A stretch of DNA of 64,000 nt from Calditrichia bacterium. Its GTDB lineage: Bacteria; Calditrichota; Calditrichia; RBG-13-44-9; J075. How positions within the stretch are numbered: the stretch's first letter is position 1; every line of letters starts with the position of its first letter. A program made the translations under genes and the position numbers. Shown piece by piece: positions 8,386 to 46,004 of this stretch. The stretch is from assembly GCA_050633245.1 (NCBI GenBank), contig JBOEGD010000005.1, positions 1 to 64,000 on the forward strand, in the 5' to 3' direction. The notes under the pieces are model-generated. The model was not told where the DNA came from. It saw only the letters and a list, made by a program, of their open reading frames with translations, and did no database searches.

Positions 8386-8494
8386 TCGTATTTGATAATA
8401 GATAAGCACCTGAGGAAAATCAAGCGCTCTGTTGCAAGATGCATTATTATAGAGGAAGGATGGGTGATGCAGGTCTACTTAGAGCACCTGCCGC

Positions 8495-10312: not shown

Positions 10313-10376
10313 GATTTCACCTGTATGATTTTTTTTAACTTCTATTGCATAGATAATACAGGTTGCTGAAAAATTA

Positions 10377-14691: not shown

Positions 14692-14794
14692 CAATATTTG
14701 CTGTACATCTATCCTTTTTAGTTGTCAGATTGCTGCTACACTGGTAATATAAAGTCAAAATTACTTACACCCACTCTGTGAAAGTACTGACTCT

Positions 14795-29300: not shown

Positions 29301-31812
29301 CACCATCAGTAACTATTACCGTTCCATTCGGCAGAACCTGTCCACCGAAGTTTGAAGAAACGGTTATGCTATGCGTAATTTGCTGGAAGATGGCCTGTAT
29401 CGTGTGAGGTTGATCTACTGAAACAAACTCATAGACACTGACTGCTCCAATAGATGCGCCATCTACAAAAACGTCTTCAATTTCGAAGCCGATACTGGCG
29501 GCGATCTGGAAAACCTGATCCACGCCATGGTCAACGAAAACATTGCCTGCAGGGGAAATGGTGCCGCCGCTACCTGCTTGTGCCGAAATTGGATAGCTGT
29601 TCAGCTCAAAAGTTGCTTCGATGGTATGATTTGCTGTAACGTTCGTGAACTGGTAGCTGCTGACAGCACCAAGCGCCTGACCGTCTACGGTTACGTCTAA
29701 AATATGATAGCCGATATTTGGCGCGATGGTAAAAAGCTGATCACTTCCACCGATTGCGTTTACTGTTCCATTCGGTGAAATCGTACCGCCAGTTCCTGCA
29801 GTTGTGATAATCTGATACGTTTGTGGTTCGAAGGTTGCGGAAATTGTGTGGTTTGCATTAACTGCAGTAAACGTGTAACTGGTAACGGCTCCAACAGAGA
29901 CGTCATCGACTAAAACATCTTCAACCTGATAACCGCTGATCGGTGTTATGGTGTAAGCACGATCAAAGCCGAGATCTACTGTGACAACCCCATCTGGTGA
30001 AATACTGCCGTTTGGACCTGAAGAGGAAGTGATGTCATAGGTCGGCGCGGCGGGAGGATTGCCTGCTAGCAAAACTAAATTTCCGTTGCGATACTTGGGG
30101 TTTAGCCAAACACCGTTTCCGATATCCTGACCCGTAATTGTCTCAAAAGTGTCGGTGGCTGAAGGATAATTCATCACGACAAAGCTATCGCCAAATGCGG
30201 GCTGATATCCGTTTAGAAGATTGATGTTTAGCGTTCCGTCAAGTTTTGGAGAAGCCGTGAAGCTTGAATTGTCGAAATTTGCAAGACTTTCAATTTCTAG
30301 GTCATAAGATGCGGTTTGCTCGTTTTGCACTGAGCCATTAAAATTCAGAGAAGCGATGTCGTTTTCACCTGGATCAATCTTACCGCGATTGTCCAGAAAA
30401 CCACCAATGGTGATTTGTCCATTTCCTCGAAGGAGCCCGGTGGATTCATTAATCAATGAGCTTCCGTTAAGTGTCATATTTCGAGAGGATAAAACCTCCA
30501 GCGTTCCCTGATTAAGTAAGGAGCTGGCCAGTGTAAAGACGCGATTATAGTTTCCGTCGACGCGAATGGTTGCGCCTGCAGCGTTCACGATCTGTCCGTT
30601 GGTAACCGCCAGAGATGCGTTATGGTTATTGGTAGCATAGAGCTCGAGCAGGCCGTTGTTGGTAAAGCCATTTGCAAAGGTCATGGCGCTGGTGGATGTT
30701 CGTCCATCGACTCTGAATACCGACCCGGGCTGTGTGGTGAGGTTTCCATTCCAGTTGTTAAATTGAAATGTTCGAATGACTTCGATGACGCCGTCGTTAT
30801 TGATATCAGCATCGATGATGTTGTTGTAGCTGAATTCAAGCGTATCAGTATTGGTGACGGGTAGTGTTGCTGAAAGCGTGCTCTGCTGAAAGGTAAGCTT
30901 TCGCGTCGGCAGATTAGCTACAGTCGAGTTCAGTGTTGAACTAACAAATGCGAGGCTTCCGTTTCCGGTGACCGGTCCGCCATTGTAATTCATGGTAGCC
31001 GAGGAATAGGTTAGCAAGCGATCATCGGCAATGATGAGATTTCCGGTTTGCTCATGCGTTTTGTTGAATGTTGCAGAACGATTGACTTCAATGGTTCCCT
31101 GATTGTCGACAGATGCGTTGAGTGTAAAGACGCGATTGTAGTTTCCGTCGACGCGAATGGTTGCGCCTGCAGCGTTCACGATCTGTCCATTGGTAACTGC
31201 CAGAGATGCGTTATGGTTATTGGTAGCATAGAGCTCGAGCAGGCCGTTGTTGGTAAAGCCATTTGCAAAGGTCATGGCGCTGGTGGATGTTCGTCCATCG
31301 ACTCTGAATACCGACCCGGGCTGTGTGGTGAGGTTTCCATTCCAGTTGTTAAATTGAAATGTTCGAATGACTTCGATGACGCCGTCGTTATTGATATCAG
31401 CATCGATGATGTTGTTGTAGGAGAATTCCATGCGGCCGGTATTAGTCAACAATCCGCTACCGTTTATTTGACTTGTGGTAAGCAGAATTTGGCCGTTGGT
31501 GTTAACGCTACTGGCTCCATTTAAAGTTATGATTCGGCCGGTTGAGCTGAGCGTTTGCGTATCACTGCTACCGCCGATCTCCAAACTTGCTATGTCAACG
31601 TTAATATCGAGTGAAACGGTATAGGTGCCCACCGTAGTAATGTGAACATTATCTTCGGTAGTCGGCACGACTCCGGTATCCCAGTTATTTGCATTGCTCC
31701 AGTTTCCGCCTGCGGGATTATTCCAGTAGACGTCCTGAGCAAATGCAGATGTTCCCAGTAGAAAAGCACTGAGAATAAAAAATCTTAACATCCTCTGTAG
31801 CTGCATCATCAT
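23335..31812 (-). CDS. 2825-aa secreted surface protein: beta-helix-like N-terminus, about 6 InlB-B-like Ig repeats, four YCF48/BNR beta-propeller modules, ASH/choice-of-anchor D Ig domains, SdrD-B-like domain, C-terminal sorting domain
   Basis: Signal peptide; G.ISP.G...F.I.P..GY.I.DV.VDG...YTF.NV..NHTI.A.F repeats; T.DGG.TW Asp-boxes; LGQNYPNPFNPTT...RKMLL end. Confidence 0.85.
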   Translation of the reverse strand: MMMQLQRMLRFFILSAFLLGTSAFAQDVYWNNPAGGNWSNANNWDTGVVPTTEDNVHITTVGTYTVSLDINVDIASLEIGGSSDTQTLSSTGRIITLNGASSVNTNGQILLTTSQINGSGLLTNTGRMEFSYNNIIDADINNDGVIEVIRTFQFNNWNGNLTTQPGSVFRVDGRTSTSAMTFANGFTNNGLLELYATNNHNASLAVTNGQIVNAAGATIRVDGNYNRVFTLNASVDNQGTIEVNRSATFNKTHEQTGNLIIADDRLLTYSSATMNYNGGPVTGNGSLAFVSSTLNSTVANLPTRKLTFQQSTLSATLPVTNTDTLEFSYNNIIDADINNDGVIEVIRTFQFNNWNGNLTTQPGSVFRVDGRTSTSAMTFANGFTNNGLLELYATNNHNASLAVTNGQIVNAAGATIRVDGNYNRVFTLASSLLNQGTLEVLSSRNMTLNGSSLINESTGLLRGNGQITIGGFLDNRGKIDPGENDIASLNFNGSVQNEQTASYDLEIESLANFDNSSFTASPKLDGTLNINLLNGYQPAFGDSFVVMNYPSATDTFETITGQDIGNGVWLNPKYRNGNLVLLAGNPPAAPTYDITSSSGPNGSISPDGVVTVDLGFDRAYTITPISGYQVEDVLVDDVSVGAVTSYTFTAVNANHTISATFEPQTYQIITTAGTGGTISPNGTVNAIGGSDQLFTIAPNIGYHILDVTVDGQALGAVSSYQFTNVTANHTIEATFELNSYPISAQAGSGGTISPAGNVFVDHGVDQVFQIAASIGFEIEDVFVDGASIGAVSVYEFVSVDQPHTIQAIFQQITHSITVSSNFGGQVLPNGTVIVTDGADQTFQFIPDPGYAVDWVEVDGNNLATQSEYTFSNVTEDHAIQVEFYQLSFSINASAGANGVITPNGNLTVPGGENRTFDITPDTGFNIEDVVVDGVSLGPLSSYTFGNIAANHTITASFIATSYPLVSSAGNGGSISPSGLLSVAVGGDAFYTITPDVDYNIGEVYVDGQPIGPVGDYLFDNVNAPHSIAAFFAPENFNYTGINTGSTDSLTGVVFTDSLNGYIVGENGLLLITIDGGSSWTTGNIGISDDLTSITVINDTLFVTGANGHICYSVDGGLTWLPTITNTSETFYSASFTSGTSGYAVSAGGIYYWNGVSWIPQNLGINTTFYGIYTVGPYAYAVGVNGICYYWNGVSWGPINIGATGSLYGAYFLNVNYGYIVGSGGIIYRTINGGGSWTTINTGVNLTIYNIHIVDDNNAWAVCEGGVILQTIDGGTTWEVITTGAPGSLAGITFINGTGYVVGAGGTGFTFESNTVQQDPIFAISDTNISFDEIAVGYSSSNSVTVYNNGYGVLTLSVSSDNAEFSFNPTATSIAAGDSLSFQIIFSPLSAGGKSGNITFSHNAVSSPDIVTVSGSATESGLTITPISIGSSQNLTGVAFVNATLGYAVGSGGVLFITYDGGGTWTAINTGTVENLTGVSVIGDVVFITGANGLICASYDGGLTWTPFVTNTTANFYASSFVNPYYGFAVGSGGVICIYNGTNWVAQSTGTSESFNSVYTYGQYAWAVGTNGIICKYVNGFWLPQTSGTNVNFHDVAFWNASLGFAVGANGTICKTNDGGSTWTPLNSGVTFDITGCKIFSPGVIWATCANGTLLQSLDSGLTWTIIPINNAPDLAGLDFSGCQGFIVGASGAAYQFSSTVCDLAINPPFVRQTTGFYQDITGCSFTDPLNGCITGIGGTVLVTSDGGLTWTFSNTGTNINLTGVQLIGNAAFITGLNGVICVSYDGGATWTPFTTNTNASFYASSFTNVSSGYAVGSAGTICYYNGASWSAQTTGLSTAFYGVFAYGNTAWAVGENGVICRYIGGSWTPQVTNTTVNFFDVAFLNSRFGYAVGANGTICRTNDGGITWEPLVSGTTQTLRGCKIISPRVAYCIGDDGLVLETTDCGDTWAEVALGYPLALEALDIVDGSGFVVGDLGEAFSFTNSAVSDIQLFALNSNNLDFASTAIGTSNVSLVRVINNGTALLDVSEISVDAAEFSLASASLAVAPGDSADLEITFTPSALGTTNGTVLFTHDASCEIDTVYLAGSGISLGYNGLATGTTTNLKGVSFIDPLNGCIVGANGTLRITTDGGDSWSDCNTGTTENLNAIKLIGNSSFIAGDNGLLCRSDNGGQSWLPFTTNTTANFYGVSFLNPGYGFAAGANGTICFYSGIGWSVQPTNTSITFYGIYAVGTTAYAVGENGTICRYNGGGWSPLTSGVNLTFYDCAFVSETFGYAVGENGTICRTRDGGITWEPLVSGTDETLRACKIVSPRVAYCSGDNGVILKTEDCGDTWEIVPVGSPVVLEGLEFIQGQGFTVGDLGEAFSFSQPELASYPVFELASSNIDFGTINTWTVVPDTIKIYNPGTSDLVINNISASSNYFLANPDSAVIPAGDSLCLEVVFCPGPAGDYSDKITFMHEGSCEVDTLYAFGSAGDIATGPGVISGTVFINNIGLPGVTVSLLDTSGLAYDSINYPPITTDADGSYLFSNVPADSYQVSIVTPLGYAVDRNPQETLVAAEDTSIVDFYLTEEVTGNHARPASYWKYQFSTYICSWGNPQETEQELNDYIDTVHERYTPHFNVFAEKTTFRKWRRLLKVGCRASTYKRARRQLAALVLNFASLKIGQYTVVTEDGRTAGDVLTYCSILLSDGNSSNDGLAKTLAKKVNTCRIIGSGIVPASNILYKDGEGLLWDFEALPETFALGQNYPNPFNPTTNISFDLPKAQFVTLAVYNVLGQQVATLVNEQTAAGSYTLQFDARNLASGIYIYRLQTEGFIKVRKMLLTR
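30530..31420. repeat. Near-identical 300-bp in-frame direct duplication (30530-30829 and 31121-31420)
   Basis: Offset 591 bp; only 3 mismatches seen by eye; identical about 100-aa peptide. Confidence 0.92.
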
Positions 31813-31854
31813 GATTCCCCTTTTATTGGTTGAATTGAAACTACCCTGACTATA

Positions 31855-31869
31855 TCAATTGCCGTGCCG
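31855..31869 (-). promoter_or_regulatory. Putative sigma-54 promoter for the giant secreted protein
   Basis: Minus strand CGGCAC-GGCAA-TTGA (GG-N10-GA versus consensus GG-N10-GC), about 45 nt before the ATG. Confidence 0.55.
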
Positions 31870-31945
31870 GAATCACTTCTTTGCTTCTTAAGTTGATTGA
31901 AATCAAATGTTTGTCTGTGTTTTTGAGGGTGGCTGAGCCGAAGCT

Positions 31946-31965
31946 CTGTCTGTTTTAGCAGACAG
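31946..31965. promoter_or_regulatory. Putative enhancer (UAS) palindrome CTGTCTG-N6-CAGACAG
   Basis: TGT-N12-ACA inverted repeat about 80-100 bp upstream of the sigma-54-like site. Confidence 0.45.
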
Positions 31966-32030
31966 CAAAAAGTATGTTGTCTGCGACAAAGGACAGGCAT
32001 GAAATTTGAAGGGTTGGAGATTTTGATAAT

Positions 32031-32100
32031 AAAAAACGGCAGCGAAGCAAATCTCGAGAGACTTTTAAATCTCTGTCGGAAAGGATTTGGCTGCTGCCGT
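32031..32100 (-). terminator. Long hairpin with U-tract (minus strand)
   Basis: ACGGCAGC...AAATC / GATTT...GCTGCCGT inverted repeat preceded by AAAAAA on plus. Confidence 0.55.
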
Positions 32101-32154
32101 CTGAAGTGTGATGTTTTTTATTTAGATTTCAAAATTAGTCGTGTTATTTCTAAA

Positions 32155-32281
32155 AAGACTGCTCCATTCTGACAATGCTCCAATGTGCTCTTTGAAAAAA
32201 CAATTCAAAATTTGGCTCTTTTTTTCTAAGTAAGTACGTACGTTCTAGCTCCCAAGACTGCTCCATTCTGACAATGCTCCA
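32155..32281. repeat. 28-bp perfect direct repeat AAGACTGCTCCATTCTGACAATGCTCCA x2
   Basis: Copies at 32155-32182 and 32254-32281 (period 99 bp); imperfect similarity extends about 16 bp further. Confidence 0.92.
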
Positions 32282-32352
32282 GTGTGGCCTTCGAAAAGTT
32301 ATTCAAAACCACCCCCGTATATTTCCTTAATATCCATGCTTTCGTAAAAAAT

Positions 32353-32568
32353 CTATTCATCATCAGACTTAACAGAACCAGATTCAGAACCCTGTGGCAT
32401 GTCTCCACCCTCGCAGAGAATGAGCTCGATACTAATTCGCTCACTGATCAGCCTGGCGGTTTGCCAATTTGTTGCAGTCATAATCTGATATCCCTCCCGG
32501 ACAAATAGTTCCCTTAGCTTGCGCAGGCGCTGCGAATCTTTATGCACAATCAGAACACGCTGTTTCAC
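32353..32568 (-). CDS. Truncated/atypical receiver-like peptide (71 aa)
   Basis: RVLIV...L..L..LF.REGY.I.TA......L......ELILC matches the N-half of a REC fold; AAGGAG RBS and GTG start; acidic pocket replaced (VHKD, LCE). Confidence 0.6.
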   Translation of the reverse strand: MKQRVLIVHKDSQRLRKLRELFVREGYQIMTATNWQTARLISERISIELILCEGGDMPQGSESGSVKSDDE

Positions 32569-32595
32569 TGAACAATCTCCTTTTTCTTCTTTATA

Positions 32596-32611
32596 AACAA
32601 TGATTGTGCCA
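32596..32611 (-). promoter_or_regulatory. Putative sigma-54 promoter
   Basis: Minus strand TGGCAC-AATCA-TTGT, about 30 nt before the GTG start. Confidence 0.6.
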
Positions 32612-32824
32612 GTTCAGTCAGGTGGCGTGGGACGCAAGGCAGATCTGTAGATGTAATTGCTCTTTCTCTTTTTAAGTATTTGTTCTTTATTGTTTTGTCT
32701 GGTTTTGGGGCAGGGCGTTCACCCGCCCAAAAAACTGGACGAGTAAATTCGGTACGAAGCTTAATAGGAGATGTTTGTCCGGGAAATCAGACGATTAAGC
32801 TGGGATTGTCTTTTTGGGAAGACA

Positions 32825-34564
32825 CTATTCGTTGTTCAAGTCCAATTCGTCGAGAAGCTTGTAGAGATACGTTCTATTTACGCCCAGAATGCGTGCGACT
32901 TCAGACCTTGATTTTGTCTGTAGCAGAACTCTTTTGATATGGTTTCTTCTAAACGCTTTCTCTGCTTCAGCCAATGTTCCATCTGATGGGAAAGAATCTT
33001 GAAGTGGGGCTCTTTCCAGAAGCTCTGGTGGCAAATCTGTGACGGCAATATTTTCACCTGCGGTTAAAACAACGCAGCGTTGCATCACGTTCTCGAGCTC
33101 GCGAATATTGCCTGGCCACTCGTACGTTTCCAATGCGGCGAGTGCTGCATCTGAAAGTGATAGTTGCTTGCTATCCATTGCGTGTTTTTTTAGAAAAAAC
33201 TCGGCTAATTCCCAAATATCGTCGCGGCGCTTGCGTAGCGGTGGAAGGGTTACTTCAATCACCTTCAAGCGATAATAGAGATCTTCGCGAAAGGTGCCTT
33301 CTGCAACGAGTGCTCCAAGGTTTTTGTTGGTCGCGGCAAGAATACGGATGTCAATCTTACGAGTTTTAATGCTGCCCAATCGCTCGACTTCTCTTTGCTG
33401 AAGCACGCGTAGTAGGCGCGTCTGTAGTGCGCTATCCATTTCACCAATCTCATCCAGAAATAGAGTACCGCCGTCTGCCATTTCTATCTTTCCGGGCTTG
33501 GCTTTCCGGGCACCGGTAAAAGCACCCTGATCGTAGCCGAAAAGCTCGGACTCGAGTAGATCCTTGGGAATAGCTCCGCAATTAATGGCAACAAATCGAC
33601 CGTCGGCCCGAGGGCTGTTTTGATGAATAGCCTGTGCAAAAAGCTCTTTTCCTGTTCCACTTTCCCCAAGGATTAATAAAGATGCCTCGGTTGGAGCAAT
33701 ACGCGAACCAAGACGTAGCAGCTCAAAAAGCACTCTGCTCGATCCAATAATCTCTTCACTCTTAAACTGTCCGCGGAGCTGTTCCAGGGTAAGCGTCGCA
33801 TCGGAGATAAGCTTCTTTTCCAATGCAGAGATTTCTTGCGAGACTTTCAAGCCCCGGCTTATCTGTTGTGCGAAGGATAGTAGGAAAGCTTGATCGGCTT
33901 GCGTAAACGGATTGTTTTTGTTCCGCCTATCTAAATAAACTGCGCCCAAGGTTTTAGAATTCAGCAAGAGTGGTGCGCAGAGAACAGCTTGTATATCCAG
34001 GTGCATAATGCTGTTTTGAGTTGCCAGCGATATATCGTTATGTGTATCATCGACGTGAATTGTTTGCGAATGTTGAGTGGACTGGCGAATGACCGTCATA
34101 CTCATATCGCGAGCGGCCTCGGATTCGGATTCGTCCATGTTTAGGCCAAAGGCATCCTGAAAAGCACCATCCTCGGTTGTTAAAACAATGTAGCCGGCGT
34201 CTGCCTGAAGCTCACGAGTTACGACTTCTATGGCCTTTTGAAGCAACGTGCTACGTTCGGTCTCACTCGAAAATAAGATTCCGGAAGCATAAAGTGTTTC
34301 AAGGCGTTTGTTTTCCGCTTTTAGTGCCTGAAGCTGCTGGCTATCGTTACCTTCAGAAAGTGCCAGCTGTTTTATACTTATATTAATATTGCGGTTTAGG
34401 CTTAAGACATCACTGTATAGCTCCTCAATTTGCTTTGCCGATTTTGCTGCCTGCTCTTCCTTAGCGCTATTTAAAAGGTCGGCAAAGCGAGCCGTCAGCT
34501 CTTTGAAGGATGAATCAACCTGTTGTTCCAACTCGCTACGGATGTCTTGGAAGGATTTTGCCAT
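32825..34564 (-). CDS. Sigma-54-dependent enhancer-binding protein: coiled coil, GAF, AAA+, Fis HTH
   Basis: GESGTGKE, ESELFG, GAFTGA, LFLDEIGE, FREDLYYRL, WPGNIREL, ARILGVNR..LY; GAF LCAPL....LGAVYLD. Confidence 0.95.
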   Translation of the reverse strand: MAKSFQDIRSELEQQVDSSFKELTARFADLLNSAKEEQAAKSAKQIEELYSDVLSLNRNINISIKQLALSEGNDSQQLQALKAENKRLETLYASGILFSSETERSTLLQKAIEVVTRELQADAGYIVLTTEDGAFQDAFGLNMDESESEAARDMSMTVIRQSTQHSQTIHVDDTHNDISLATQNSIMHLDIQAVLCAPLLLNSKTLGAVYLDRRNKNNPFTQADQAFLLSFAQQISRGLKVSQEISALEKKLISDATLTLEQLRGQFKSEEIIGSSRVLFELLRLGSRIAPTEASLLILGESGTGKELFAQAIHQNSPRADGRFVAINCGAIPKDLLESELFGYDQGAFTGARKAKPGKIEMADGGTLFLDEIGEMDSALQTRLLRVLQQREVERLGSIKTRKIDIRILAATNKNLGALVAEGTFREDLYYRLKVIEVTLPPLRKRRDDIWELAEFFLKKHAMDSKQLSLSDAALAALETYEWPGNIRELENVMQRCVVLTAGENIAVTDLPPELLERAPLQDSFPSDGTLAEAEKAFRRNHIKRVLLQTKSRSEVARILGVNRTYLYKLLDELDLNNE

Positions 34565-34620
34565 AAGCTGTATTCCATTACGTTTTTAAAAGATACGGAC
34601 TGAGTTTTTGAAATCCAACG

Positions 34621-34656
34621 CCTTGTAGGACTGCCCAATCGTGCGGCTCTACAAGG
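34621..34656. repeat. GTAG...CTAC REP-like element overlapping the kinase stop codon
   Basis: CCTTGTAG-gactgcccaatcgtgcggct-CTACAAGG inverted ends. Confidence 0.6.
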
Positions 34657-36628
34657 CCTCTTCAACTTCAGCAATTGTCTGATAGCGATCATCAGGATTC
34701 TTCGCTAAACAACGCTCAATTATGGCGTCGAAAGATCCGGCGTCGTCATTGCGCAACAGAGATGCGGATGTTGGAGAATCATTGAAAATAGAATGCATAA
34801 TCGATATTTCATTATCCCCTCGAAAAGGCGACTGATTGGTCAGCAGCTCATAAAGGATGACGCCGAACGAGAAAATATCTGATCGACAGTCAATCTCGCG
34901 ATTGGTTATCTGTTCCGGTGCCGTATAACCAAGCGTGCCGATGATACCGCCGGATGATGTTTGGGTGCGAATTAAGGAAGACTTCGATAAACCAAAGTCC
35001 ATTACGCGAATAGAACCAGAACCATCAAGCATAATGTTTGCCGTTTTCAGATCGCGGTGAATAATATTGCGTCTGTGGATTTCCTTTAGTGCCGAGCAAA
35101 CTTGCAATACTATCTGACGAATTTGCGATAGCGATAGCGGGTGATTCTCCTTTAAGAAGTCGGCAAGTGTTCCACCGGACAAGTATTCCATGGCAATAAA
35201 CTTACGCCCAGCCGATTCTCCAACCTCAAATGCCCGCACAATATTAGGGTGATTGAAAGAGGACAAAATAAACCCCTCACTATTCAGTCGTCGTCTGTTT
35301 TCCTCATCTTCCAACAGTTCATTATGTAGGATTTTGATCGCTACTTCTTTATCAGAGTTTTTATCGGTAGCAAGAAAGACCTTCCCCATACCACCTTCGC
35401 CAAGCAGTTTCTCCAGCCGATAGTGGGAGATAACCTTTGCCTGCCGATCTGCTACATGCCTCCAATAAAGTCTTGATATAGCTGCAAGAATAAAACCGGA
35501 AAGCAAGGTGGTTGTTAACCCGGTTACCGGAACCCAGCTGCTTGTGATGGCAAAGTAGATGTAACAACTAATCCAGATTAGCAGCAATAGCAGCACTGTC
35601 AACAGTAAGCCGCGAGAAGGTCTGAGTAAAAGAGTGCCAAAGACGATCAGCAATGCGATTAGCAGGTAAAGCGCGTAGCTCCATAATTTACTGATATCTT
35701 CCAGATAATTGGTGTGCAGGAACATTAAAAATGAATTGGCATGAACTTCCACCCCCCGCATCAATCTTTCATCGAAAACCGCCGTTGCATAGGGTGTATA
35801 GAAGCGATCTTTTGCCGATTCAACACCTCCACCGATTAAGACCACTCGTTCGCGAAACAGTTCTTTCGGAAGCGGTGTCTTTCCGGTTAACAAGCTGCTG
35901 CGATAGGTTGGAATTGCGCCTTCTTCTGCCTGAATCCAGATGCCGGCAGATGTTCTTTCCCACTTACCCGGAGGACCGACATAGTTCAGCCTTAATTCAT
36001 TATGCATATCTGGCGGTCGAACCGAGCCTTTTCCTTTTCCTGAAAAATGCTGAGCCAGAATCAACCCAATTGCCGGAATGCTATCGCCAGAATCAATAAT
36101 CCATGGCTTGATACCTTTTACCCGACCGAACACACCGCCACCAACTTGTAGCATTGCATGTCCCATGTCATAGAGCTCATCAGCAAACAGTTTTGCGGGC
36201 TTTTGAATAACTGTCGTATCTTCACGGGTCTCTTCAAGACAGATTCCGACAACGTTGTCAGCTCGGCGGAGCGAAGTAGCCAGTAGACTATCACCGGCCG
36301 GATCGGGAACAAAGCGATTTAATAGCGAGATATCCAGCGCGATAACCGCCGCTTTGTATCCATTCAGGCTGTCAATAAGATTTGCGAGATAGCGTCGTGG
36401 AATCGGATCATAATAACCGTACGGGGCAATTGCCGCTTCGTCTACCAGGACAATTGCTGCTTCGTCTACTGATTTCTCCCCAGTGATGGTGCGGAGGGCA
36501 ATGAAGTAGTCCAGTGCTCTGTCGTCATAGCGGCGGGTTGTGTTGTTGGCAAGACTATATAGGCCAAAGAGAATAGCGAGGGCACTTAAAAGCAGGCCTG
36601 TGAGTAAGATTCTAGCCGGACGATTCAT
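34649..36628 (-). CDS. CHASE2 sensor plus transmembrane helices plus Hanks-type Ser/Thr protein kinase
   Basis: CHASE2 IVLVDE...PR..LA.LI..L...A.VI.LD, D.F.TP, M.GVE.HA; kinase GEGGMG.V, VAIK, HRDLK..N, DFG, GT..Y.APE, DIFSFG. Confidence 0.92.
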   Translation of the reverse strand: MNRPARILLTGLLLSALAILFGLYSLANNTTRRYDDRALDYFIALRTITGEKSVDEAAIVLVDEAAIAPYGYYDPIPRRYLANLIDSLNGYKAAVIALDISLLNRFVPDPAGDSLLATSLRRADNVVGICLEETREDTTVIQKPAKLFADELYDMGHAMLQVGGGVFGRVKGIKPWIIDSGDSIPAIGLILAQHFSGKGKGSVRPPDMHNELRLNYVGPPGKWERTSAGIWIQAEEGAIPTYRSSLLTGKTPLPKELFRERVVLIGGGVESAKDRFYTPYATAVFDERLMRGVEVHANSFLMFLHTNYLEDISKLWSYALYLLIALLIVFGTLLLRPSRGLLLTVLLLLLIWISCYIYFAITSSWVPVTGLTTTLLSGFILAAISRLYWRHVADRQAKVISHYRLEKLLGEGGMGKVFLATDKNSDKEVAIKILHNELLEDEENRRRLNSEGFILSSFNHPNIVRAFEVGESAGRKFIAMEYLSGGTLADFLKENHPLSLSQIRQIVLQVCSALKEIHRRNIIHRDLKTANIMLDGSGSIRVMDFGLSKSSLIRTQTSSGGIIGTLGYTAPEQITNREIDCRSDIFSFGVILYELLTNQSPFRGDNEISIMHSIFNDSPTSASLLRNDDAGSFDAIIERCLAKNPDDRYQTIAEVEEAL

Positions 36629-36636
36629 TTAATAAT

Positions 36637-37584
36637 TTAATCTTCTACAGACACTTTGGCAAACTCTCTGGCATTGAGTGCTGCCGCAGATTTATTTCCC
36701 AGTCTTGTGTTTAGCGTTTCGAGTATCGTATAAACGCCGGGCATTTCGGGATGAGAAACGGCTGCTTGTTGAGCATGATCGAGAGCTGAGTGAAACAAGT
36801 TATAGCGATAATACGCTGCGCTGAGCAAAAAATTAGTCGTCACAAGCTCTCCATTAGCAGGTTTTAGCGACTCGACTTCAAGAATATCCTGTTTTAGATT
36901 GGCGTGTTCTTCGTCTCCCATAATTGAAAAATATACCTTCGCCGATTGACGGCCACTGCTATCACTAATGAACCAGAGATATTGATCTTCTGAGTCTAGC
37001 TTAGGTGCGTTTGATGGATAGGCGAACCAGGTGCCATTAGCCTGTGTTGTGTAAAAAAAGTCACTTACTTCACTTTCTATCGTCAGCGTAAAGGAGCGGC
37101 CATGTATGGTATCAATCCAGCGGAATATCGGTCGAGATTCAAGGATCTTACTTCGCCTCGGGTAGACCGTCGATAGCGTTGTGTCCTCATCCGCAGTCTG
37201 CCAGCGAGTGGTTCCGGCCACAGATTTGGATTTCTCCTTTCCCCAAAGCAAATCGGACACGACTTTGCCGAGTCCGCTTGCCTGCGAATTCTTCTTGCTC
37301 TTTGAGCTGCGAATTTTATGGCTGCCGTTATTTCGCAACACGACTTCCTTCCCGGAATAATAAATAATAACGGCTTTGCCGCTACTCCCGGCCTTAATGT
37401 GATCTCCGTTTTTAAGCTTGCTGCTACTACGGGCTTTGCTCATTATGCCGCCAGATCTAATAGTTACATCGCCCTTGATGGATGAAAAAGCTGCGACGGA
37501 CTGCGCAGAAAGCTCGGCTGGTAATCCCAGAGCCAGGAGCATTATGAAGAATGTCTTGAGTTGTATTCTCATCTTGGATCTCAA
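36637..37584 (-). CDS. Exported FecR-like/DUF928-like protein with C-terminal TPR helices
   Basis: Signal peptide; S.KG.V.I...L..GD.I.....A.I.Y N-domain; Lys/Ser linker ending AGTTR; PR.SKI...RP.FRW...YP..AP.L...QY.W; helical C-terminus. Confidence 0.6.
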   Translation of the reverse strand: MRSKMRIQLKTFFIMLLALGLPAELSAQSVAAFSSIKGDVTIRSGGIMSKARSSSKLKNGDHIKAGSSGKAVIIYYSGKEVVLRNNGSHKIRSSKSKKNSQASGLGKVVSDLLWGKEKSKSVAGTTRWQTADEDTTLSTVYPRRSKILESRPIFRWIDTIHGRSFTLTIESEVSDFFYTTQANGTWFAYPSNAPKLDSEDQYLWFISDSSGRQSAKVYFSIMGDEEHANLKQDILEVESLKPANGELVTTNFLLSAAYYRYNLFHSALDHAQQAAVSHPEMPGVYTILETLNTRLGNKSAAALNAREFAKVSVED

Positions 37585-37610
37585 TTATTTCTTTTATTGA
37601 TAGAATGCCT

Positions 37611-40577
37611 TTATTTGCCGATTAGGATGAAAGGAGACCAATAAAATGGTGATGCATACTGTTCATCTTCAATAAGCTTTTGCTTGGCTCGCCGCAGCGA
37701 ATCGGACAATTTCTTCCCTTTGGCAACACGCTCGAAAAAATTAGTCATTAATATTGCTGTAGACTGATCGGAAACCTGCCAGAGTGAGACAGTTAGGTTT
37801 TTTGCCCCCGCATATAAAAATCCGCGGGTTAAGCCAATAATTCCTTCACCACGCACGAGCTTGCCAAGGCCGGTTTCGCACGCACTTAAGACAACCAGTT
37901 CGGCATTTAGATTCAGATTATATACTTCGGAAGAATATAATACAGCATCTTCCTCTGAAGAACTGTCTGCAGCAAGAAGAAGCCCGGAAAGCTGAGGTTG
38001 TTTTTCATTCACAAATCCATGTGTCGCAAAGTGAAGATAACGATATGATGATATATCTGCCGCTTTTATTTTATCCTCATTTGCCTGTTTGTTAAGCAGT
38101 AAGGTACTGCGTTTCTTTTTACGTTTAAAGATATTAGCAACTGCCGATGTTTCTTCTCTTGTCGCAGGTAGTGGTATTACCTTGCCATCACCGCGAAATA
38201 CTGCTGATGAATCCAGTGAGCGAACAGCTGCCAGAAAGTTGTTTTTGGATTGGAGTGTATCCGATTCATCCTCAAAGCCGGGTGCGAAGGCTAAATATCC
38301 AGAGGTCTTTTCTTGTCGACGCTGTTGGGTTTCTATCATCAGTCTCGCAGAGTAGCCATAGCCAATTGTTACCTCATGAATCAGATAGTCCAACGAAGTA
38401 AATTCTGCGTTCCGTTTGGCCGGTTGTGTTAGCAGTGCTTCAAATGGTAAATAGCCAAGAATGCCATCCGGAATAATTTGAAGGTGCTTTTTCTTTTTGA
38501 GGAGCGGCTGAAGAGGTTTGAGCAAGGTGGTGTAAAGCCGATTAGCGTAGCGGGCATATAAATTAATATCGTCGCGCACTAATCCGGAACGCATGAGTTT
38601 AACCTGTTTATCCAGATCTGCCGGCTTTTTAAGCTGAAATGCTTCGACGTTTTTGCGAGTAATTACAAAGGCGTAAATTGTACTGTCGCCAAGCATATAT
38701 TCAATCAGTGCGTCTTTTTTCCCGACCAGGTGTTTTCTTACATCGGAAACTTTCACATCGTTTGTCTGATATTTTAAATTATAGTACTGCGGATATTCTT
38801 TCTCCAGCCTGGCGGTCAATTTATCCAAGTCCAGCTTCAGCTTAAAGAGGCGGTCTTTCCATCCCGGTAATCGCAGCGAATCTACTTTGGCGCCTTTTTC
38901 CTGAGACTGCAAGACCCGTTGATTGAGTGCAGCCAGTTCGAAACGAATGGTTCGTTCTTTTTCAAGTAAAGTGTCTGGAATATTGGCAAAGCGCTTTGCT
39001 TCTACATCACTCAGTGCTTCAAGAAGTGTCCCCGACTTATTCTTTTCTGCGAACAGAAAGGCCTTTTCAGTAAAAGAATCGTCATTCGTAACCTGCGCTA
39101 ATTCAAGGGCCGTTTGTAATGCGCCATCGAAGGTCGTAGCAGATTGTTTTCCCAAAAACAGTTTAGAACCTTCTGCCTTAAAACCACTTCGCAGCGATTC
39201 TACAAAACCTCCTATGCGCTCATAGGTTGCGAGTGAAAGACGAAGATCCGGTAGATTCTGTGTCTCTTTATAACGCTTTCGAAGAAGAGTGGCCTTTTGT
39301 GTCATGTTTTCCAGCACCTTTTGTTCAGAAATAGTTTCTTCTTCGCCGGGGTTTTTTGCCAAATCCATATCGTCAAAGGAATAGGACAACGCACCAAGTG
39401 CTTTTTGATACTCTACCAGGGCTTCATCGAGTTTTCCCTGATGTTCGTACATCTCCCCGTATTTTTCAAACCCTTCAGCAATAAGCTCATGAACCGATCC
39501 ATAAAGCTCATCACGCATGCTTTTTGCCAGTTCAAAGTAGTGTGTCGCACTATCATAATCTGATTGGTGATAGGCAATAGCACCTAAACTAAGTTGAGCA
39601 TAAGAGACATATGGATGGTCTTCTCCGTAGGTGTCACTGTACCGTTTAAGAGCTTCGGTAAAATAAACTTTTGCAGTATCGTATTTAGCCATATCGTAAT
39701 AGACAATGCCAAGATTATAGTGCCCTGATGATCCGCTCGCCGAATTACCATAGACATCCAATGCAATTTTGAAATGGGAAATTGCTTTTTTGAACTCGCC
39801 CATTTCGCGATAGGTATTAGCAAAATTATTGTTGATGTAACCGACGTAGGGGTGTTTGTCGCCAAAATTTATCTTAATAAGCTCAAGCGTCTTTCCGTAA
39901 TAGTCCAGGGCGCGGTTGTAGTCACCACGATTATAGCTGACAATACCCAGGTTGTTATAGCTGGCCATGATATGCGGATGGGTTTCCGGTAGTGCATTTA
40001 TTCTGATCTCTAACGCTTTCTCGAAATAGACCAGCGCATTCGTAAAGTCATCCATATCGCCATAGCTTACCCCGATATTGTTCATTACCGCCGCTACATC
40101 AACGTGATTCTCTCCATAGGCTTTGCGCCGGATTGCCAGAGCTTTGTTTAAATACTCAAAGGATGTGGCGTAATCAGCCCAGTCTTGATAGAGAGAACCG
40201 ATGTTATTATACGCTGTCCCCAGCTGAATATGATCTTCTCCCAGAAGAGGAATAGCTTCTTCTATTGATTCCAGCAATACCTGCTCGGAAGAATCCAGTT
40301 TCTGCACCATTTGCAAATTCCCGCCGACAAAAATTTTGCATTGCATATAGGGCGACCATGCTTCAGTAAGGCCTTTTTCTGCAGCCTGTTTAAAAAGATC
40401 TCGAGCTTCGAAATAGAGCATGTTAGAGCTATCCATTTTTGATGCGCTTGCTAAAGCTTTGGCCTGTTTAAATAACGACCATGCTTTTGCTGTATCAGCG
40501 GCAGCTTCGTCCGCCTGGCAAATTGTCGAAGAGAACAAAACGGCAGATAACAAGAGAAGCAATGTCGATCGAATCAT
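37611..40577 (-). CDS. Exported TPR-repeat CHAT (caspase-like) protease
   Basis: Signal peptide; NN.G..Y...G.Y..AL.Y..KAL.I...G..HP TPRs; IIPDG.L..LPFEAL, catalytic LHFATHG and LSACETG, SLW.V.D, P.YW.PF. Confidence 0.93.
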   Translation of the reverse strand: MIRSTLLLLLSAVLFSSTICQADEAAADTAKAWSLFKQAKALASASKMDSSNMLYFEARDLFKQAAEKGLTEAWSPYMQCKIFVGGNLQMVQKLDSSEQVLLESIEEAIPLLGEDHIQLGTAYNNIGSLYQDWADYATSFEYLNKALAIRRKAYGENHVDVAAVMNNIGVSYGDMDDFTNALVYFEKALEIRINALPETHPHIMASYNNLGIVSYNRGDYNRALDYYGKTLELIKINFGDKHPYVGYINNNFANTYREMGEFKKAISHFKIALDVYGNSASGSSGHYNLGIVYYDMAKYDTAKVYFTEALKRYSDTYGEDHPYVSYAQLSLGAIAYHQSDYDSATHYFELAKSMRDELYGSVHELIAEGFEKYGEMYEHQGKLDEALVEYQKALGALSYSFDDMDLAKNPGEEETISEQKVLENMTQKATLLRKRYKETQNLPDLRLSLATYERIGGFVESLRSGFKAEGSKLFLGKQSATTFDGALQTALELAQVTNDDSFTEKAFLFAEKNKSGTLLEALSDVEAKRFANIPDTLLEKERTIRFELAALNQRVLQSQEKGAKVDSLRLPGWKDRLFKLKLDLDKLTARLEKEYPQYYNLKYQTNDVKVSDVRKHLVGKKDALIEYMLGDSTIYAFVITRKNVEAFQLKKPADLDKQVKLMRSGLVRDDINLYARYANRLYTTLLKPLQPLLKKKKHLQIIPDGILGYLPFEALLTQPAKRNAEFTSLDYLIHEVTIGYGYSARLMIETQQRRQEKTSGYLAFAPGFEDESDTLQSKNNFLAAVRSLDSSAVFRGDGKVIPLPATREETSAVANIFKRKKKRSTLLLNKQANEDKIKAADISSYRYLHFATHGFVNEKQPQLSGLLLAADSSSEEDAVLYSSEVYNLNLNAELVVLSACETGLGKLVRGEGIIGLTRGFLYAGAKNLTVSLWQVSDQSTAILMTNFFERVAKGKKLSDSLRRAKQKLIEDEQYASPFYWSPFILIGK

Positions 40578-40997
40578 GAGAACACTTCCTTTCTGATAAA
40601 ACGCATAACGGCACCTTTCATGCGGTGAAAAACAAGTTGCCTGATATCAAGATCAAACATTGTACCAAAAAAATAAAACAAACGCGTCAAGAAATAATGG
40701 CGAGGTTTTAGTCTTTGCCATTGTAAATAAACGACTTATAGAAGATGTGTTGCCGGGTTCCAGGTTGAACGGCTCTGCAGTCGGGGCGTACTGCTGAGAG
40801 ATTGTCGCAAAAAACGGACAGTTTGTCTTTTCCATAAGACACTAAAGCGAAATACAGGTATCCTCACACAATAAATTATACGATTTCTGAATCACTTATT
40901 CAAGTCGGTAGGCTCTATATGGTTTCGTTTCAAACCGTACGGCGGGTTATGTGATCCGCGCAACTACAACAGAGACGCTCAGCGACTTTATTTTTAA

Positions 40998-41134
40998 CAG
41001 GTCTTAAGAACAAGTCTGTCCGGCACCGACCTCCCGCACGGACAGCACCGGGGACACGGAGCGTCCCTCATTCAATACGCAGCACAAAAGAGCATTGGGA
41101 CATGAAGGGTCCCCGGTAGTTCTTTTTAGACCTG
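40998..41134. ncRNA. Candidate structured non-coding RNA (three-way junction), family unknown
   Basis: Closing stem CAGGTCT.AAGAAC / GTTCTT..AGACCTG enclosing hairpins CTGTCCG/CGGACAG and ACCGGGGAC/GTCCCCGGT (inner GTCCC/GGGAC). Confidence 0.4.
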
Positions 41135-41236
41135 AAAAACCCGTCCTGTTGCTCCGTAATTATTTCAGATTGTAGCCAGTGATTTTTGGTGCTATTTTTA
41201 GCGCCACAAACGAATCACTTATATCATTGGCAGACT

Positions 41237-42475
41237 ATGAACTCACTTTTGCTCGTTCTTCCCTCTTCAACCTATCGTACAAATGCCTTTATGGAAGCGG
41301 CAGCACGTCTTGACGTGACGGTTCTTGTTGCATCAGACCATCGTCAGGCAATGGCAGCGCTGGTTCCTGATACAACACTTGCGCTAAACTTTCGTAAGCC
41401 GGAACAAATTCGCGAGAAGATTGCGTCCTATTTTGAAAAGAATCCTTTTTTAACTGCCATCGGAGTAGATGATCAATCTGCGCATGTTGCCGCGCAAATT
41501 AATGAGACATTGGGCCTGCCGGGTATCCCAGTTGAAGCGACAGCCGCAGCTCGCAACAAATATCTAATGCGCCAAAAGCTGGCGGCAGCGGATGTGAATG
41601 TTCCAAACTTCGATCTCCATTCTTTGGAAAAACCACAACCAGATAAACCGGTGTACCCCTGCGTGTTAAAACCGACTTTTTTGTCAGCCAGTCGTGGCGT
41701 TACGCGCGCTAATAAACCGGGAGAATTTTCACAAGCCTTTTCAGCGCTAAGGGAATTGATTCGCACGCCGGAAATTTCAGCGCGAGCCCATGATGGCGAA
41801 GCTGCGAGTATTCTGGTGGAAGATTATGTGCCGGGAATGGAGGTGGCGCTGGAAGGAATTCTAACAGACGGCGATTTTAAAAGCCTGGCCATTTTTGATA
41901 AGCCTGACCCGCTGGAAGGCCCGCATTTTGTTGAAACAATCTATGTAACACCATCTCGGCTTCCTGCCTACGTGCAGCGTGAATTGATTCATGAGACACA
42001 TAAGGCAGCGCTTGCACTTGGTATCGACAACGGACCGGTGCACGCCGAGTTGCGAGTAAATGAGCAGGGCGCCTGGATTATTGAAATTGCCGCCAGATCG
42101 ATTGGCGGGCTTTGTTCACGCGTTTTGCGCTTCTCGGAAAAGCTGGTGTTAGAAGATCTGATCTTGCGTCAGGCAATTGGTGTGGATATCTCCGAAGTGC
42201 AGCGAGAGCGGCAGGCAGCAGCGGTGATGATGGTGCCGATTCCTTCTGCCGGACGGTTAAAACGAGTGGGTGGCGTTGACGAGGCGAGTGCCGTTGAAGG
42301 TGTGGAAGACGTGATTATCTCGATCCCCAATGGGCAGGAGGTTTTGCCCATGCCTTTTGGCGGGCGCTATTTAGGATTTATCTTTGCACGCGCGGATATG
42401 CCGGAAGAAGCTGAAGATTCAATACGACGAGCGCATGCCTGCTTGAAGATCGAGATTGACGACGGTACTGCATGA
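41237..42475 (+). CDS. ATP-grasp ligase (L-amino-acid ligase-like)
   Basis: NK..MR..L, YP.VLKP....SRGV, LVE.Y.PG.E...EG, H.E.R......IE.A.R..G; likely ATG 41237. Confidence 0.85.
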   Translation: MNSLLLVLPSSTYRTNAFMEAAARLDVTVLVASDHRQAMAALVPDTTLALNFRKPEQIREKIASYFEKNPFLTAIGVDDQSAHVAAQINETLGLPGIPVEATAAARNKYLMRQKLAAADVNVPNFDLHSLEKPQPDKPVYPCVLKPTFLSASRGVTRANKPGEFSQAFSALRELIRTPEISARAHDGEAASILVEDYVPGMEVALEGILTDGDFKSLAIFDKPDPLEGPHFVETIYVTPSRLPAYVQRELIHETHKAALALGIDNGPVHAELRVNEQGAWIIEIAARSIGGLCSRVLRFSEKLVLEDLILRQAIGVDISEVQRERQAAAVMMVPIPSAGRLKRVGGVDEASAVEGVEDVIISIPNGQEVLPMPFGGRYLGFIFARADMPEEAEDSIRRAHACLKIEIDDGTA

Positions 42476-43608
42476 TGACATCCGGCGATCTGCGTTTGCA
42501 GCTTGGCGTATTCGCACTCTCTTTTGCAGCTTTTGTGAATGTGTATCTCCCGCAACCCGTACTTCCTGTTATGCAGGAAGATTTATACTCCAACACTGTT
42601 TATACATCTCTGATTATCTCTGTACTATTCCTCGGTATTGCCTTTGGTAATATTCCTTTTGGGATGGCTATCGATCGCTTACCGATTCGTCCGATTGTTT
42701 TAGCCGGTGGGTCTGTTGTTGCTGTTACCGGGGCAATTTGCTGGCAATCGTCGGATTTACGAGTGATCATCGCAGCGCGTTTTTTACAGGGATTTTTTCT
42801 TCCGGCCATTACCAGTTGCCTGGCCGCATATCTTTCCCGAACGTTACCGCGTGAGCGTCTTAATCAGGTCCTGGGTGGATATGTTGCCGCGACCGTTGCC
42901 GGCGGCCTTGTTGGCCGCATGATTTCCGGACTTTTGCTACCGGCCGAAGAATGGCGAACGGCCTTCCTGATAGGGGTGACCATAACGATTATTGCACTAG
43001 CTATCTCGTATCACTCTTTTGATAACAAGCCTCTGTCTTCGTTGGAAGTAGCAGTTGTGAGCTTTAGCGAGCTATTGCGTCAAAAGGATGTAAGACTAAT
43101 TTTAATTTCGGCGGGTTTTGGAATGGCGGCGTTTGCTTCTGTGTTTAACTTCCTGCCATATCGTTTACAGTCTCCTCCGTTTACTTTGCCGGTGCGAACA
43201 TCGACGCTGTTCTATTTGCCTTATTTGATTGGCACGGTGGCAGCCTCTTTTGCCGGCTGGATGAGTAACCGGTTTAGCAATGGCATAACCATTCTCGCTG
43301 CAACCGGTTTACTCGTCTGTTCTATGATGTTGATTATGATGCCCAGCCTGACACTTACGGTTGTTGCGTTATTGGGAATGTGTGCAGGTTTCTTTGCATT
43401 GCATTCGGCGATGCTTGCAACCCTGAACAGGAAGTTGAACTCTGGCCATGGCAGGGCAAATGCCCTCTATGTATTATTCTATTATGTTGGCGCGTGGCTG
43501 GGAATAACAGTTGCCGGATTAGTCTACGAATCTGAAGGTTGGAATAGCATGGTTGCTATTTTAACTGCACTGCTGATTGTGCCTCTGTCGTTGGGACTGA
43601 AGAGGTAG
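42472..43608 (+). CDS. MFS transporter (YnfM-like)
   Basis: F..VY.PQP.LP, ARFLQG, Y.A....GG..GR, A..LY..FYY.G; 12 TM; overlaps the ATP-grasp stop. Confidence 0.88.
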   Translation: MMTSGDLRLQLGVFALSFAAFVNVYLPQPVLPVMQEDLYSNTVYTSLIISVLFLGIAFGNIPFGMAIDRLPIRPIVLAGGSVVAVTGAICWQSSDLRVIIAARFLQGFFLPAITSCLAAYLSRTLPRERLNQVLGGYVAATVAGGLVGRMISGLLLPAEEWRTAFLIGVTITIIALAISYHSFDNKPLSSLEVAVVSFSELLRQKDVRLILISAGFGMAAFASVFNFLPYRLQSPPFTLPVRTSTLFYLPYLIGTVAASFAGWMSNRFSNGITILAATGLLVCSMMLIMMPSLTLTVVALLGMCAGFFALHSAMLATLNRKLNSGHGRANALYVLFYYVGAWLGITVAGLVYESEGWNSMVAILTALLIVPLSLGLKR

Positions 43609-45993: not shown

Positions 45994-46004
45994 TATTAAG
46001 GCTC

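Follow-up and report, generated by a model that had tools for sequence, protein, structure and literature searches.

A putative envelope-signalling circuit in a Calditrichia bacterium that joins a TPR-CHAT peptidase, an MtxA-family protein and a CHASE2 receptor kinase to a sigma-54 activator

How a signal in the periplasm might be passed on to sigma-54-type transcription is the question raised by a four-gene locus of a Calditrichia bacterium (Calditrichota; GenBank assembly GCA_050633245.1, contig JBOEGD010000005.1, positions 1 to 64,000 of the forward strand; this whole stretch of 64,000 nucleotides is called the window below). The genes encode an exported TPR-CHAT peptidase, an exported protein of 315 aa, a CHASE2 receptor kinase and a sigma-54 activator. 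A preliminary description had proposed a relay in which CHAT cleaves a "DUF928-like" protein, CHASE2 senses the product and the kinase phosphorylates the activator; this relay was partly supported in the present study. With moderate confidence, the locus is read here as a self-activating envelope-signalling circuit with a periplasmic input, a kinase, a sigma-54 activator and three promoters. In this circuit, whose physical interactions, direction of control and phosphorylation step we infer, the periplasmic input would consist of the peptidase, the 315-aa protein (a member of the MtxA family) and the CHASE2 domain of the receptor kinase, the MtxA-family protein acting as a bridge between the caspase-fold protease and CHASE2. 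The input would set the activity of the cytoplasmic Ser/Thr kinase domain, and the kinase would control its cognate GAF-type activator, probably by phosphorylation. The activator would bind TGTCT-N8-AGACA palindromes and fire three sigma-54-type promoters, which would drive the circuit's own four-gene operon (positive feedback), a 71-aa half-receiver and a 2825-aa surface protein with a sorting domain of the type IX secretion system (T9SS).

The four genes of the core are as follows (positions of the window).

37611..40577, minus strand: exported TPR-CHAT cysteine peptidase, 988 aa (Pfam; N-terminal hydrophobic stretch at residues 2-22)
36637..37584, minus strand: exported MtxA-family protein, 315 aa (profile, fold and model; likely true start at 37572)
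34649..36628, minus strand: receptor with CHASE2, three transmembrane stretches and a Hanks-type Ser/Thr kinase domain, 659 aa (Pfam, hydropathy)
32825..34564, minus strand: GAF - sigma-54 AAA+ - helix-turn-helix (HTH) enhancer-binding protein, 579 aa; about 85 additional residues at the N-terminus (Pfam)

The co-oriented layout noted earlier was confirmed when the gaps were re-measured at 26, 8 and 84 bp; the first becomes 38 bp if the 315-aa protein starts at 37572. Signal peptides were judged by eye, and hydrophobic and transmembrane stretches were taken from hydropathy. The peptidase matched many TPR families and, over residues 676-988, CHAT (PF12770; E 7.2e-71, 239 bits with the cut-off at 24). 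Its His/Cys dyad is intact, as had been claimed, with H853 (within HFATHG) and C900 (within LSACET) unchanged in all five aligned relatives. In this family these two residues are taken to be the catalytic pair of the caspase fold. In the receptor, CHASE2 (PF05226; E 2e-28, 99.9 bits against a cut-off of 26.3) covered residues 18-328 and Pkinase (E 5e-58) residues 403-650, in keeping with the architecture first assigned to it. Hydropathy marked transmembrane stretches at 7-25, 317-335, 341-359 and 366-384, and this order of one N-terminal stretch followed by three at 317-384 would place CHASE2 in the periplasm and the kinase domain in the cytoplasm. The G-loop, VAIK, HRD, DFG and APE motifs are readable in the kinase sequence. 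In the activator, Pfam matched GAF (residues 104-237), Sigma54_activat (residues 272-438; E 4.5e-70) and an AAA lid; HTH_8 scored a weak 17 bits, where its cut-off is 22. The GAFTGA, Walker A and Walker B motifs are recognisable in the activator sequence, and neither REC nor FHA occurred among the Pfam matches, which bears out the earlier view of a GAF activator that lacks both.

The identity of the 315-aa protein is central to the argument. Neither Pfam nor NCBIfam gave a family match for it, and with E relaxed to 1 DUF928 (PF06051) still gave none. Among 1.84 billion representatives scanned in full with HMMER, 333 relatives of this protein were found at E up to 1e-3, most of them 300-345 aa long. 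The family alignment, A1, was made from 60 of 150 listed matches, hand-picked at about 300-345 aa among the best ~95, with fragments and longer fusions excluded. Pfam searches on the 60 members found DUF928 in 15 (best E 8.8e-10), DUF7354 in 16, FecR (PF04773) in 5 and a TPR family in 31. Because the 315-aa protein is unmatched and 15 of its 60 relatives match PF06051, the DUF928 label is valid only through relatives, and in this transitive sense it is a fair if distant name for the Ig-like domain. The protein was also unmatched by FecR; shorter proteins of the phylum that match only the N-terminal part of the profile gave FecR at 3e-12 and 3e-16.

The AlphaFold model made with A1 (predicted local distance difference test, pLDDT, 87.5) contains a FecR-like beta domain (29-90), a helix (102-114), a segment modelled as disordered (118-132, pLDDT <50), an immunoglobulin-like (Ig-like) sandwich (137-221) and a TPR part (224-314). 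Export of the protein agrees with the preliminary description; the two domains given there are replaced by three modules, FecR-like, Ig-like and TPR. The Lys/Ser-rich linker ending in AGTTR that had been pointed out is present in the translation, and AGTTR, with R127, lies in the disordered segment. The best Foldseek match was the C-terminal domain of MtxA (4Z29; E 3.4e-7, TM-score 0.63 on the target). The A1 profile aligned with 4z29_A in a single stretch (positions 22-307 against 19-297, E 8.4e-17); a PDB search with the single relative P0012 as query gave no useful match. Since the profile matches the full MtxA construct and the fold matches 4Z29, the protein is placed in the MtxA family. 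Translation probably begins at the ATG four codons downstream (37572; 311 aa), where the database copy and the orthologs also start. MtxA carries a signal peptide, its two parts are joined by a flexible linker that trypsin cuts in vitro, and the gene next to mtxA encodes a CHASE2 adenylate cyclase, according to the part of the source that was available (PMC4439547).

The four genes are conserved together in the closest relatives. A word-based search found four close relatives of the 315-aa protein (56-80% identity). The CHASE2 part of the kinase likewise had four kinase-bearing relatives (61-84% identity), one of them from a Calditrichota metagenome-assembled genome (MAG) at NCBI, and the next-best matches were CHASE2 cyclases at 29-37% identity. 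In a metagenome scan, two loci, L049 and L050, kept the order CHAT, MtxA-like, CHASE2 kinase, activator, small open reading frame (ORF) and start of the giant gene at 56-79% identity, and on two more short contigs the 315-aa protein and the kinase were both present as close copies. Full-length MtxA-like genes were found in 4 of the 86 genomes of the phylum that were examined. At one of these loci (L045) CHAT and the MtxA-like gene stand together, and at two others (L046, L047) CHAT, a CHASE2 cyclase, the MtxA-like gene and a CsgG-like protein do; no kinase or activator is present at any of the three. The version with kinase and activator is therefore taken to be a narrow lineage variant of a broader CHAT/MtxA-like/CHASE2 module.

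The output of the relay, which was missing from the preliminary description, is predicted to comprise three sigma-54-like promoters with palindromes, a small ORF and a giant T9SS protein.

40824..40841: palindrome TGTCT-N8-AGACA, putative enhancer (upstream activating sequence) upstream of the operon promoter (motif scan)
40653..40667, minus strand: sigma-54-like -24/-12 promoter P1, TGGTAC-N5-TTGA, 76 nt upstream of the start codon of the CHAT gene
32807..32824: palindrome TGTCT-N8-AGACA upstream of P2 (equivalent in L050 at 14727-14744)
32597..32611, minus strand: sigma-54-like promoter P2, TGGCAC-N5-TTGT, about 30 nt before the small ORF
32353..32568, minus strand: 71-aa ORF, truncated receiver-like, beta1-alpha1-beta2-alpha2-beta3 only (modelled fold; syntenic in L049 and L050)
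32022..32108, minus strand: two-tier conserved hairpin and T run (22 pairs, 3 with compensatory changes, three sequences compared)
31947..31964 and 31978..31995: two palindromes upstream of P3 (equivalent in L050 at 15614-15631)
31855..31869, minus strand: sigma-54-like promoter P3, CGGCACGGCAATTGA (CGGCAC-N5-TTGA), 43 nt before the giant gene (identical core in L050)
23335..31812, minus strand: exported 2825-aa protein with propeller repeats of the BNR/Sortilin type, Ig-like domains of the ASH/HYDIN type and, at the C-terminus, a T9SS sorting domain

P2 and P3 both lie within the 1-kb spacer after the activator gene, and each of the three promoter sites has a palindrome 80-200 bp upstream; a second, imperfect copy follows just downstream of 40824..40841 (the pair in L050 is at 6750-6788). 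Sites at equivalent places were read as TGGTACGATGTTTGA for P1 in L050 and as TGGCATAATCCTTGA for P2 in L049 and L050. With at most one mismatch the palindrome matched four times in the 64 kb (1.43 expected), and every match falls within the spacers ahead of the operon, the small ORF and the giant gene. In L050 the four palindromes and the three GGYAY-N5-TTGA motifs likewise all fall in the three equivalent spacers (0.42 and 0.59 expected). The genome contains one rpoN and 33 sigma-54 activators. GG and TTG are correctly spaced at P1-P3, and the -12 C is replaced by A or T in all three, as in 48 of the 69 intergenic candidate sites of the genome (base after TTG: A 25, T 23, C 18, G 3).

The 71-aa ORF is regarded as a real gene because the differences between L049 and L050 are distributed over the codon positions as 3/0/25. 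Receiver domains were the top matches in a structural search, none with E <=0.001. The DD of receivers is replaced by HK, no Asp is conserved after beta3, and the acidic pocket is not conserved; the complete (beta-alpha)5 fold of a receiver was not found, and Pfam gave no match. The hairpin that follows is probably the terminator of the small-ORF transcript, judged from its sequence and covariation. Rfam at gathering thresholds returned no family on 20000-47000, and a search for sequencing runs, RNA included, that cover 31700-41000 gave none. The giant gene, syntenic in L049 and L050, encodes what is probably the main output of the circuit.

Two repeats in the spacer that separates the small ORF from the giant gene were considered as a possible enhancer or small RNA and were rejected, as they belong to a dispersed genome-wide repeat of 36 copies. 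The repeat is about 30 bp long, with the core GGAGCATTGTYAGAATGGAGCAG and short inverted ends, and often occurs in pairs about 100 bp apart; it is found at 32159-32290 of the window (minus strand) and at 34 other places. Thirty-two of the 36 copies are intergenic, their orientation to genes is not fixed, and they have the look of repetitive extragenic palindromic elements or miniature inverted-repeat transposable elements. The repeat is present twice at the same place in L050 and absent in L049.

The coupling of kinase to activator is well supported by genome comparison. Six of the 19 Ser/Thr kinases of this genome lie beside an activator, and about 0.26 were expected (our own arithmetic, on 4879 crude ORFs). 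All six kinase-paired activators have the composition GAF-AAA+-HTH, and among the 33 activators only these six matched this GAF subtype strongly, with two others matching weakly. The sensor parts of the partner kinases are PEGA in four, BNR/FG-GAP in one and CHASE2 in one, the kinase of the window. The GAF subtype was found in 85 of 86 genomes of the phylum, and at 21 of 29 sampled loci of other genomes the kinase gene lay directly downstream of the activator.

The five further pairs of a receptor kinase and a GAF-sigma-54 activator in this genome are at L014, L072, L073, L074 and L075 (contigs C4, C7, C8, C30 and C36), and Kelch-repeat T9SS proteins stand beside two of them. L014 also holds a gene (8153-10678 of the locus; G000:C4:153152-155677, minus strand) for an 841-aa protein in which CHASE2 and a transmembrane part are fused to a sigma-54 AAA+ domain, i.e. 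a membrane-anchored enhancer-binding protein. This gene is followed by the sigma-54-like site TGGCATCGCGCTTGT (C4:153010-153024) and then by outer-membrane beta-barrel genes and a FecR-like gene.

The adjacency of six of 19 kinases, the shared GAF subtype, the 21 of 29 loci in the phylum and the CHASE2-AAA+ paralog make a dedicated kinase-activator partnership likely. The kinase may phosphorylate the activator directly; no convincing phospho-site was seen among the conserved Ser/Thr residues of the GAF domains examined.

The periplasmic side of the circuit was approached through the neighbours of MtxA-like genes in a second phylum, that of a Bacteroidales MAG, where 22 of 401 sampled genomes had a full-length member. 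Twenty of the 22 were taken (G086, already present as L121, and G419 were excluded). The survey hidden Markov models for CHASE2, CHAT, kinase, AAA+, GAF and C14 were built from few sequences, and distant members may be missed. CHASE2 was adjacent at 15 of the 20 loci, TPR-CHAT at three and neither at two. C14 caspase genes occurred at four, namely two CHASE2 loci and both loci with neither partner. A caspase-fold protease, either CHAT or C14, thus stands beside the MtxA-like gene at 7 of these 20 loci and at 6 of 6 in the phylum of the window. At the remaining 13 loci CHASE2 was the sole recurrent neighbour family, and no protease family was found, among the 25 commonest of 138 neighbour families (rarer ones could be hidden). 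The CHASE2 proteins there are stand-alone, 415-450 aa long, and lie amid housekeeping genes; no output domain was detected in the three CHASE2 proteins of this phylum scanned with Pfam, one of them from a caspase-bearing locus. Since the partners are CHASE2 in some genomes and caspase-fold proteases of two families in others, the MtxA family is placed as a bridge between them. A complex prediction that paired the periplasmic part of CHASE2 (25-320, alignment A4) with residues 29-315 of the MtxA-like protein, its mature form (A1), gave a score of 0.08 with the mark at 0.32, which counts neither for nor against their contact.

Several of these loci have a gene content of their own. At L164 (4965-13160; Bacteroidota-type genome G303) a CsgG-like/Glucodextran_B/caspase (C14) fusion is followed, in this order, by a stand-alone CHASE2 protein of 415 aa, the MtxA-like protein, a papain-like peptidase and a Kelch T9SS protein. 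The MtxA-like/TPR-CHAT pairs at L156, L157, L158 and L121 have no CHASE2; a conserved protein of about 190 aa, which belongs to no family, comes next. At L156-L158 giant exported FG-GAP/beta-helix proteins come after the pair; they are homologous to each other and not to the giant protein of the window.

N-terminal-only matches to the MtxA profile were also sampled in the phylum of the window (20 of about 150, taken from the top, one per genome, several cut by contig ends). At 11 of these 20 loci, a shorter FecR-like protein, matching only the N-terminal third of the profile, lies about 2.5 kb from a CHASE2 protein; CHAT was found at none of the 20. At six of the FecR-like loci the Ig-like part is found in a second protein, about 385 aa long. 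A triad composed of a FecR-domain protein of about 230 aa, a protein of about 800 aa without a Pfam match and a CHASE2 adenylate/guanylate cyclase recurs in the phylum, at L015 (G000:C29) and at 11 of the 20 loci L052-L071.

Whether the protease acts on the bridge protein is a question for the linker. Of the 60 family members, 57 retain R127; the linker around it, modelled as disordered, is otherwise variable, and small residues flank the Arg. Cleavage after basic residues is a property of some caspase-fold proteases. Among 28 aligned MtxA-like members with known gene neighbours, the linker Arg was present in all 15 protease-linked members (11 of 11 linked to CHAT, 4 of 4 linked to C14) and lost from four of the 13 for which no protease was seen. 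The one-sided exact test gave p ~0.035 (our own arithmetic, on kin that are not independent), and the tracking of protease linkage by Arg retention is suggestive. That CHAT cuts the linker after Arg127 to start or tune signalling is possible on this evidence, if rather doubtful. Self-cleavage of AGTTR at Gly-Thr, of the FoxR/FecR type, was also considered and was dropped because the linkers of relatives (LGGLR, VLMVR, GAVHR) have no Gly-Thr.

Several observations weigh against the circuit as read here. The -12 elements of P1-P3 lack the canonical GC (reference spacing TGGCAC-N5-TTGC), and the relaxed promoter pattern is only mildly enriched between genes (98 of 642 matches genome-wide); for these reasons sigma-54 dependence is something we infer. 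The canonical TGGCAC-N5-TTGC had three one-mismatch matches in the window, at chance level, and no genome-wide excess. As motif counts show no strong excess, it is the location and the conservation of the sites that carry the promoter call. Five sequences, that of the window among them, represent this CHASE2 clade in its kinase form, whose generality is therefore low. A small molecule could act on the GAF domain, in place of the kinase or in addition to it. In a survey from the CHAT side, covering 80 TPR-CHAT loci from many phyla, 66 had no MtxA-like, CHASE2 or kinase neighbours. The co-occurrence of CHAT, DUF928 and CHASE2 genes, previously said to be common in many bacteria, therefore holds for a subset. 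The MtxA profile matched at 9 of the 80 loci (six including the Ig-like part, three TPR only), and a general CHAT-CHASE2 link was not found, with CHASE2 at one of the 80. Deletion of mtxA in Magnetospirillum had no phenotype under standard conditions, in the available part of that report (PMC4439547). Finally, nine of the 13 members without a visible protease keep the linker Arg, shifted by one residue (G[AS]VxR). Because of these nine, the Arg motif is not tied to an adjacent protease and could serve docking or binding.

The same nine loci lend weight to another explanation, in which circuit and output are unchanged and the MtxA-like protein is an uncleaved periplasmic co-receptor of CHASE2, a role like that of FecR-domain partners in other CHASE2 systems. 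CHAT would then serve as a scaffold or a receptor for ligands through its TPRs, would dampen signalling by destroying the co-receptor, or would cleave the giant protein, CHASE2 itself or another substrate. We regard this explanation as tentative and somewhat unlikely. The 13 of 20 second-phylum loci with bare CHASE2 and MtxA-like genes speak for it, as do the FecR-domain proteins that stand beside CHASE2 kinases or cyclases without proteases at the 11 phylum loci and in Burkholderia (PMC5192318) and Campylobacterota (PMC9239204). The giant exported proteins that adjoin the CHAT/MtxA-like pairs of L156-L158 would also fit. It accounts less readily for the presence of two caspase-fold families beside MtxA-like genes, for an Arg that is present in every protease-linked member and missing from four protease-free ones, and for the conserved catalytic dyad of CHAT. 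The full proposal, in which a CHAT cut after the linker Arg makes the form sensed by CHASE2 and, in addition, the kinase/GAF-activator pairs are a phylum-wide Ser/Thr family akin to two-component systems, is unlikely to hold in both its parts.

It is quite improbable that the locus consists of two independent neighbours, with CHAT and the MtxA-like protein acting on surface or secreted proteins and the CHASE2 kinase and activator forming a separate sensor, e.g. for a small molecule. CHAT and MtxA-like genes do occur without CHASE2 (L045, L121 and L156-L158), CHASE2/MtxA-like pairs without CHAT exist, and there are kinase-activator pairs with PEGA (four times) or BNR/FG-GAP (once) as the sensor. 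Against such a division stand the gaps of 8-84 bp, the single promoter-like site ahead of all four genes and the presence of the four genes together in every close relative seen. Moreover, CHAT and CHASE2 flank the MtxA-like gene, whose family is tied to both, and the trio recurs with a cyclase output in L046 and L047.

A conflict, anti-phage or programmed-cell-death system is very improbable. In its favour are the PADLOC matches of the kinase to single-gene kinase models (PD-T4-6, E 6e-82) and of the activator to models of the RtcR/PspF type, and the action of CHAT proteases in type III-E CRISPR systems (from a source available in part). Against it, the PADLOC matches are those of a generic kinase and AAA+ protein, CHAT matched a TPR model alone, no model matched the MtxA-like protein or the small ORF, no nuclease, toxin or NTPase partner is present at the locus, the output is a surface protein, and CHAT and the MtxA-like protein carry export signals and so would act outside the cytoplasm.

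Other genes of the window are of less certain relevance. The nearest are two divergent genes whose synteny is kept and whose membership in the system is uncertain.

41186..43608, plus strand: ATP-grasp (L-amino-acid-ligase-like) and major facilitator superfamily (MFS) transporter genes

L050 keeps both in the same divergent position (79% and 60% identical). The pair might make and export a small peptide, and a tie to the sensor is speculation. At 44611-46032 (minus strand) the window also encodes a 473-aa protein with a prokaryotic JAB domain (weak match) and a ThiF/E1-like domain.

Returning to the circuit preferred here, all of its parts belong to known families, and the locus is regarded as a real, partly new signalling circuit whose protease trigger is hypothetical. 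In a limited literature collection, no account of the complete wiring was found, as the preliminary description had stated, and no description of a recurrent link between MtxA-type proteins and caspase-fold proteases or of one-to-one pairs of Ser/Thr kinases and GAF activators. CHASE2 is a widespread sensor with poorly understood ligands, and the factors that it recognises were called unknown in a 2016 paper (PMC5192318). MtxA has a solved structure and no function, and the locus puts both into one testable circuit. This circuit offers a readable output, i.e. three conserved promoters and a giant surface protein, and a specific candidate cleavage site, and the kinase-activator pairs point to a class of dedicated Ser/Thr-kinase-to-sigma-54 pathways. 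If the protease step is true, it would provide the first mechanism for both MtxA/DUF928-type proteins and CHASE2.

The closest known system is that of MtxA and the CHASE2 adenylate cyclase of Magnetospirillum (4Z29). In both, an exported protein of about 310 aa has an N-terminal domain, a flexible linker (protease-sensitive in MtxA), an Ig-like domain and a two-repeat TPR, and a CHASE2 gene is adjacent. The output there is a cyclase and the available part of the source mentions no protease, whereas at the present locus a TPR-CHAT gene stands ahead of the MtxA-like gene, and a Ser/Thr kinase with a sigma-54 activator forms the output. A periplasmic FecR-type partner and TPRs are likewise found beside the CHASE2 receptor in the Burkholderia "BiofilmReg" LysM-FecR/CHASE2 histidine kinase system (PMC5192318) and in the CHASE2 cyclase/FecR/TPR cluster of Campylobacterota (PMC9239204). 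Unlike the locus described here, these clusters use a histidine kinase with a response regulator or cyclic AMP (cAMP), and have no caspase-fold protease and no sigma-54 output. In Sinorhizobium meliloti the CHASE2 receptors CyaD1, CyaD2 and CyaK answer a signal of protein nature via an envelope partner, NsrA (PMC13001267); that partner is an outer-membrane beta-barrel, signalling proceeds through cAMP and Clr, and no protease or kinase takes part. In cyanobacteria, CHASE2 has been observed tethered to Ser/Thr kinases (PMC2877116).

On the output side, Myxococcus reportedly has sigma-54 activators with FHA domains that are thought to take input from Ser/Thr kinases (Jelsbak et al. 2005). Ser/Thr kinase signalling feeds sigma-54 enhancer-binding proteins in both cases, but here the activators carry GAF instead of FHA, and each stands beside its own receptor kinase, like a two-component pair. 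For the protease, the nearest parallel is the TPR-CHAT protein (Csx29) of the type III-E CRISPR "Craspase", which shares the TPR and CHAT architecture and makes a regulated, site-specific cut in a partner. According to the part of the source that was available, Craspase is cytoplasmic and RNA-guided, whereas the CHAT protein described here is exported and has no CRISPR context. In Toll/Spaetzle signalling and in protease-activated receptors, an extracellular protease converts a pro-ligand that is sensed by a membrane receptor. The logic proposed here is alike, with no homology and with a cleavage that is hypothetical; if the protease step is true, the locus would represent a bacterial counterpart of protease-activated receptor logic, a protease-gated pro-ligand pathway.

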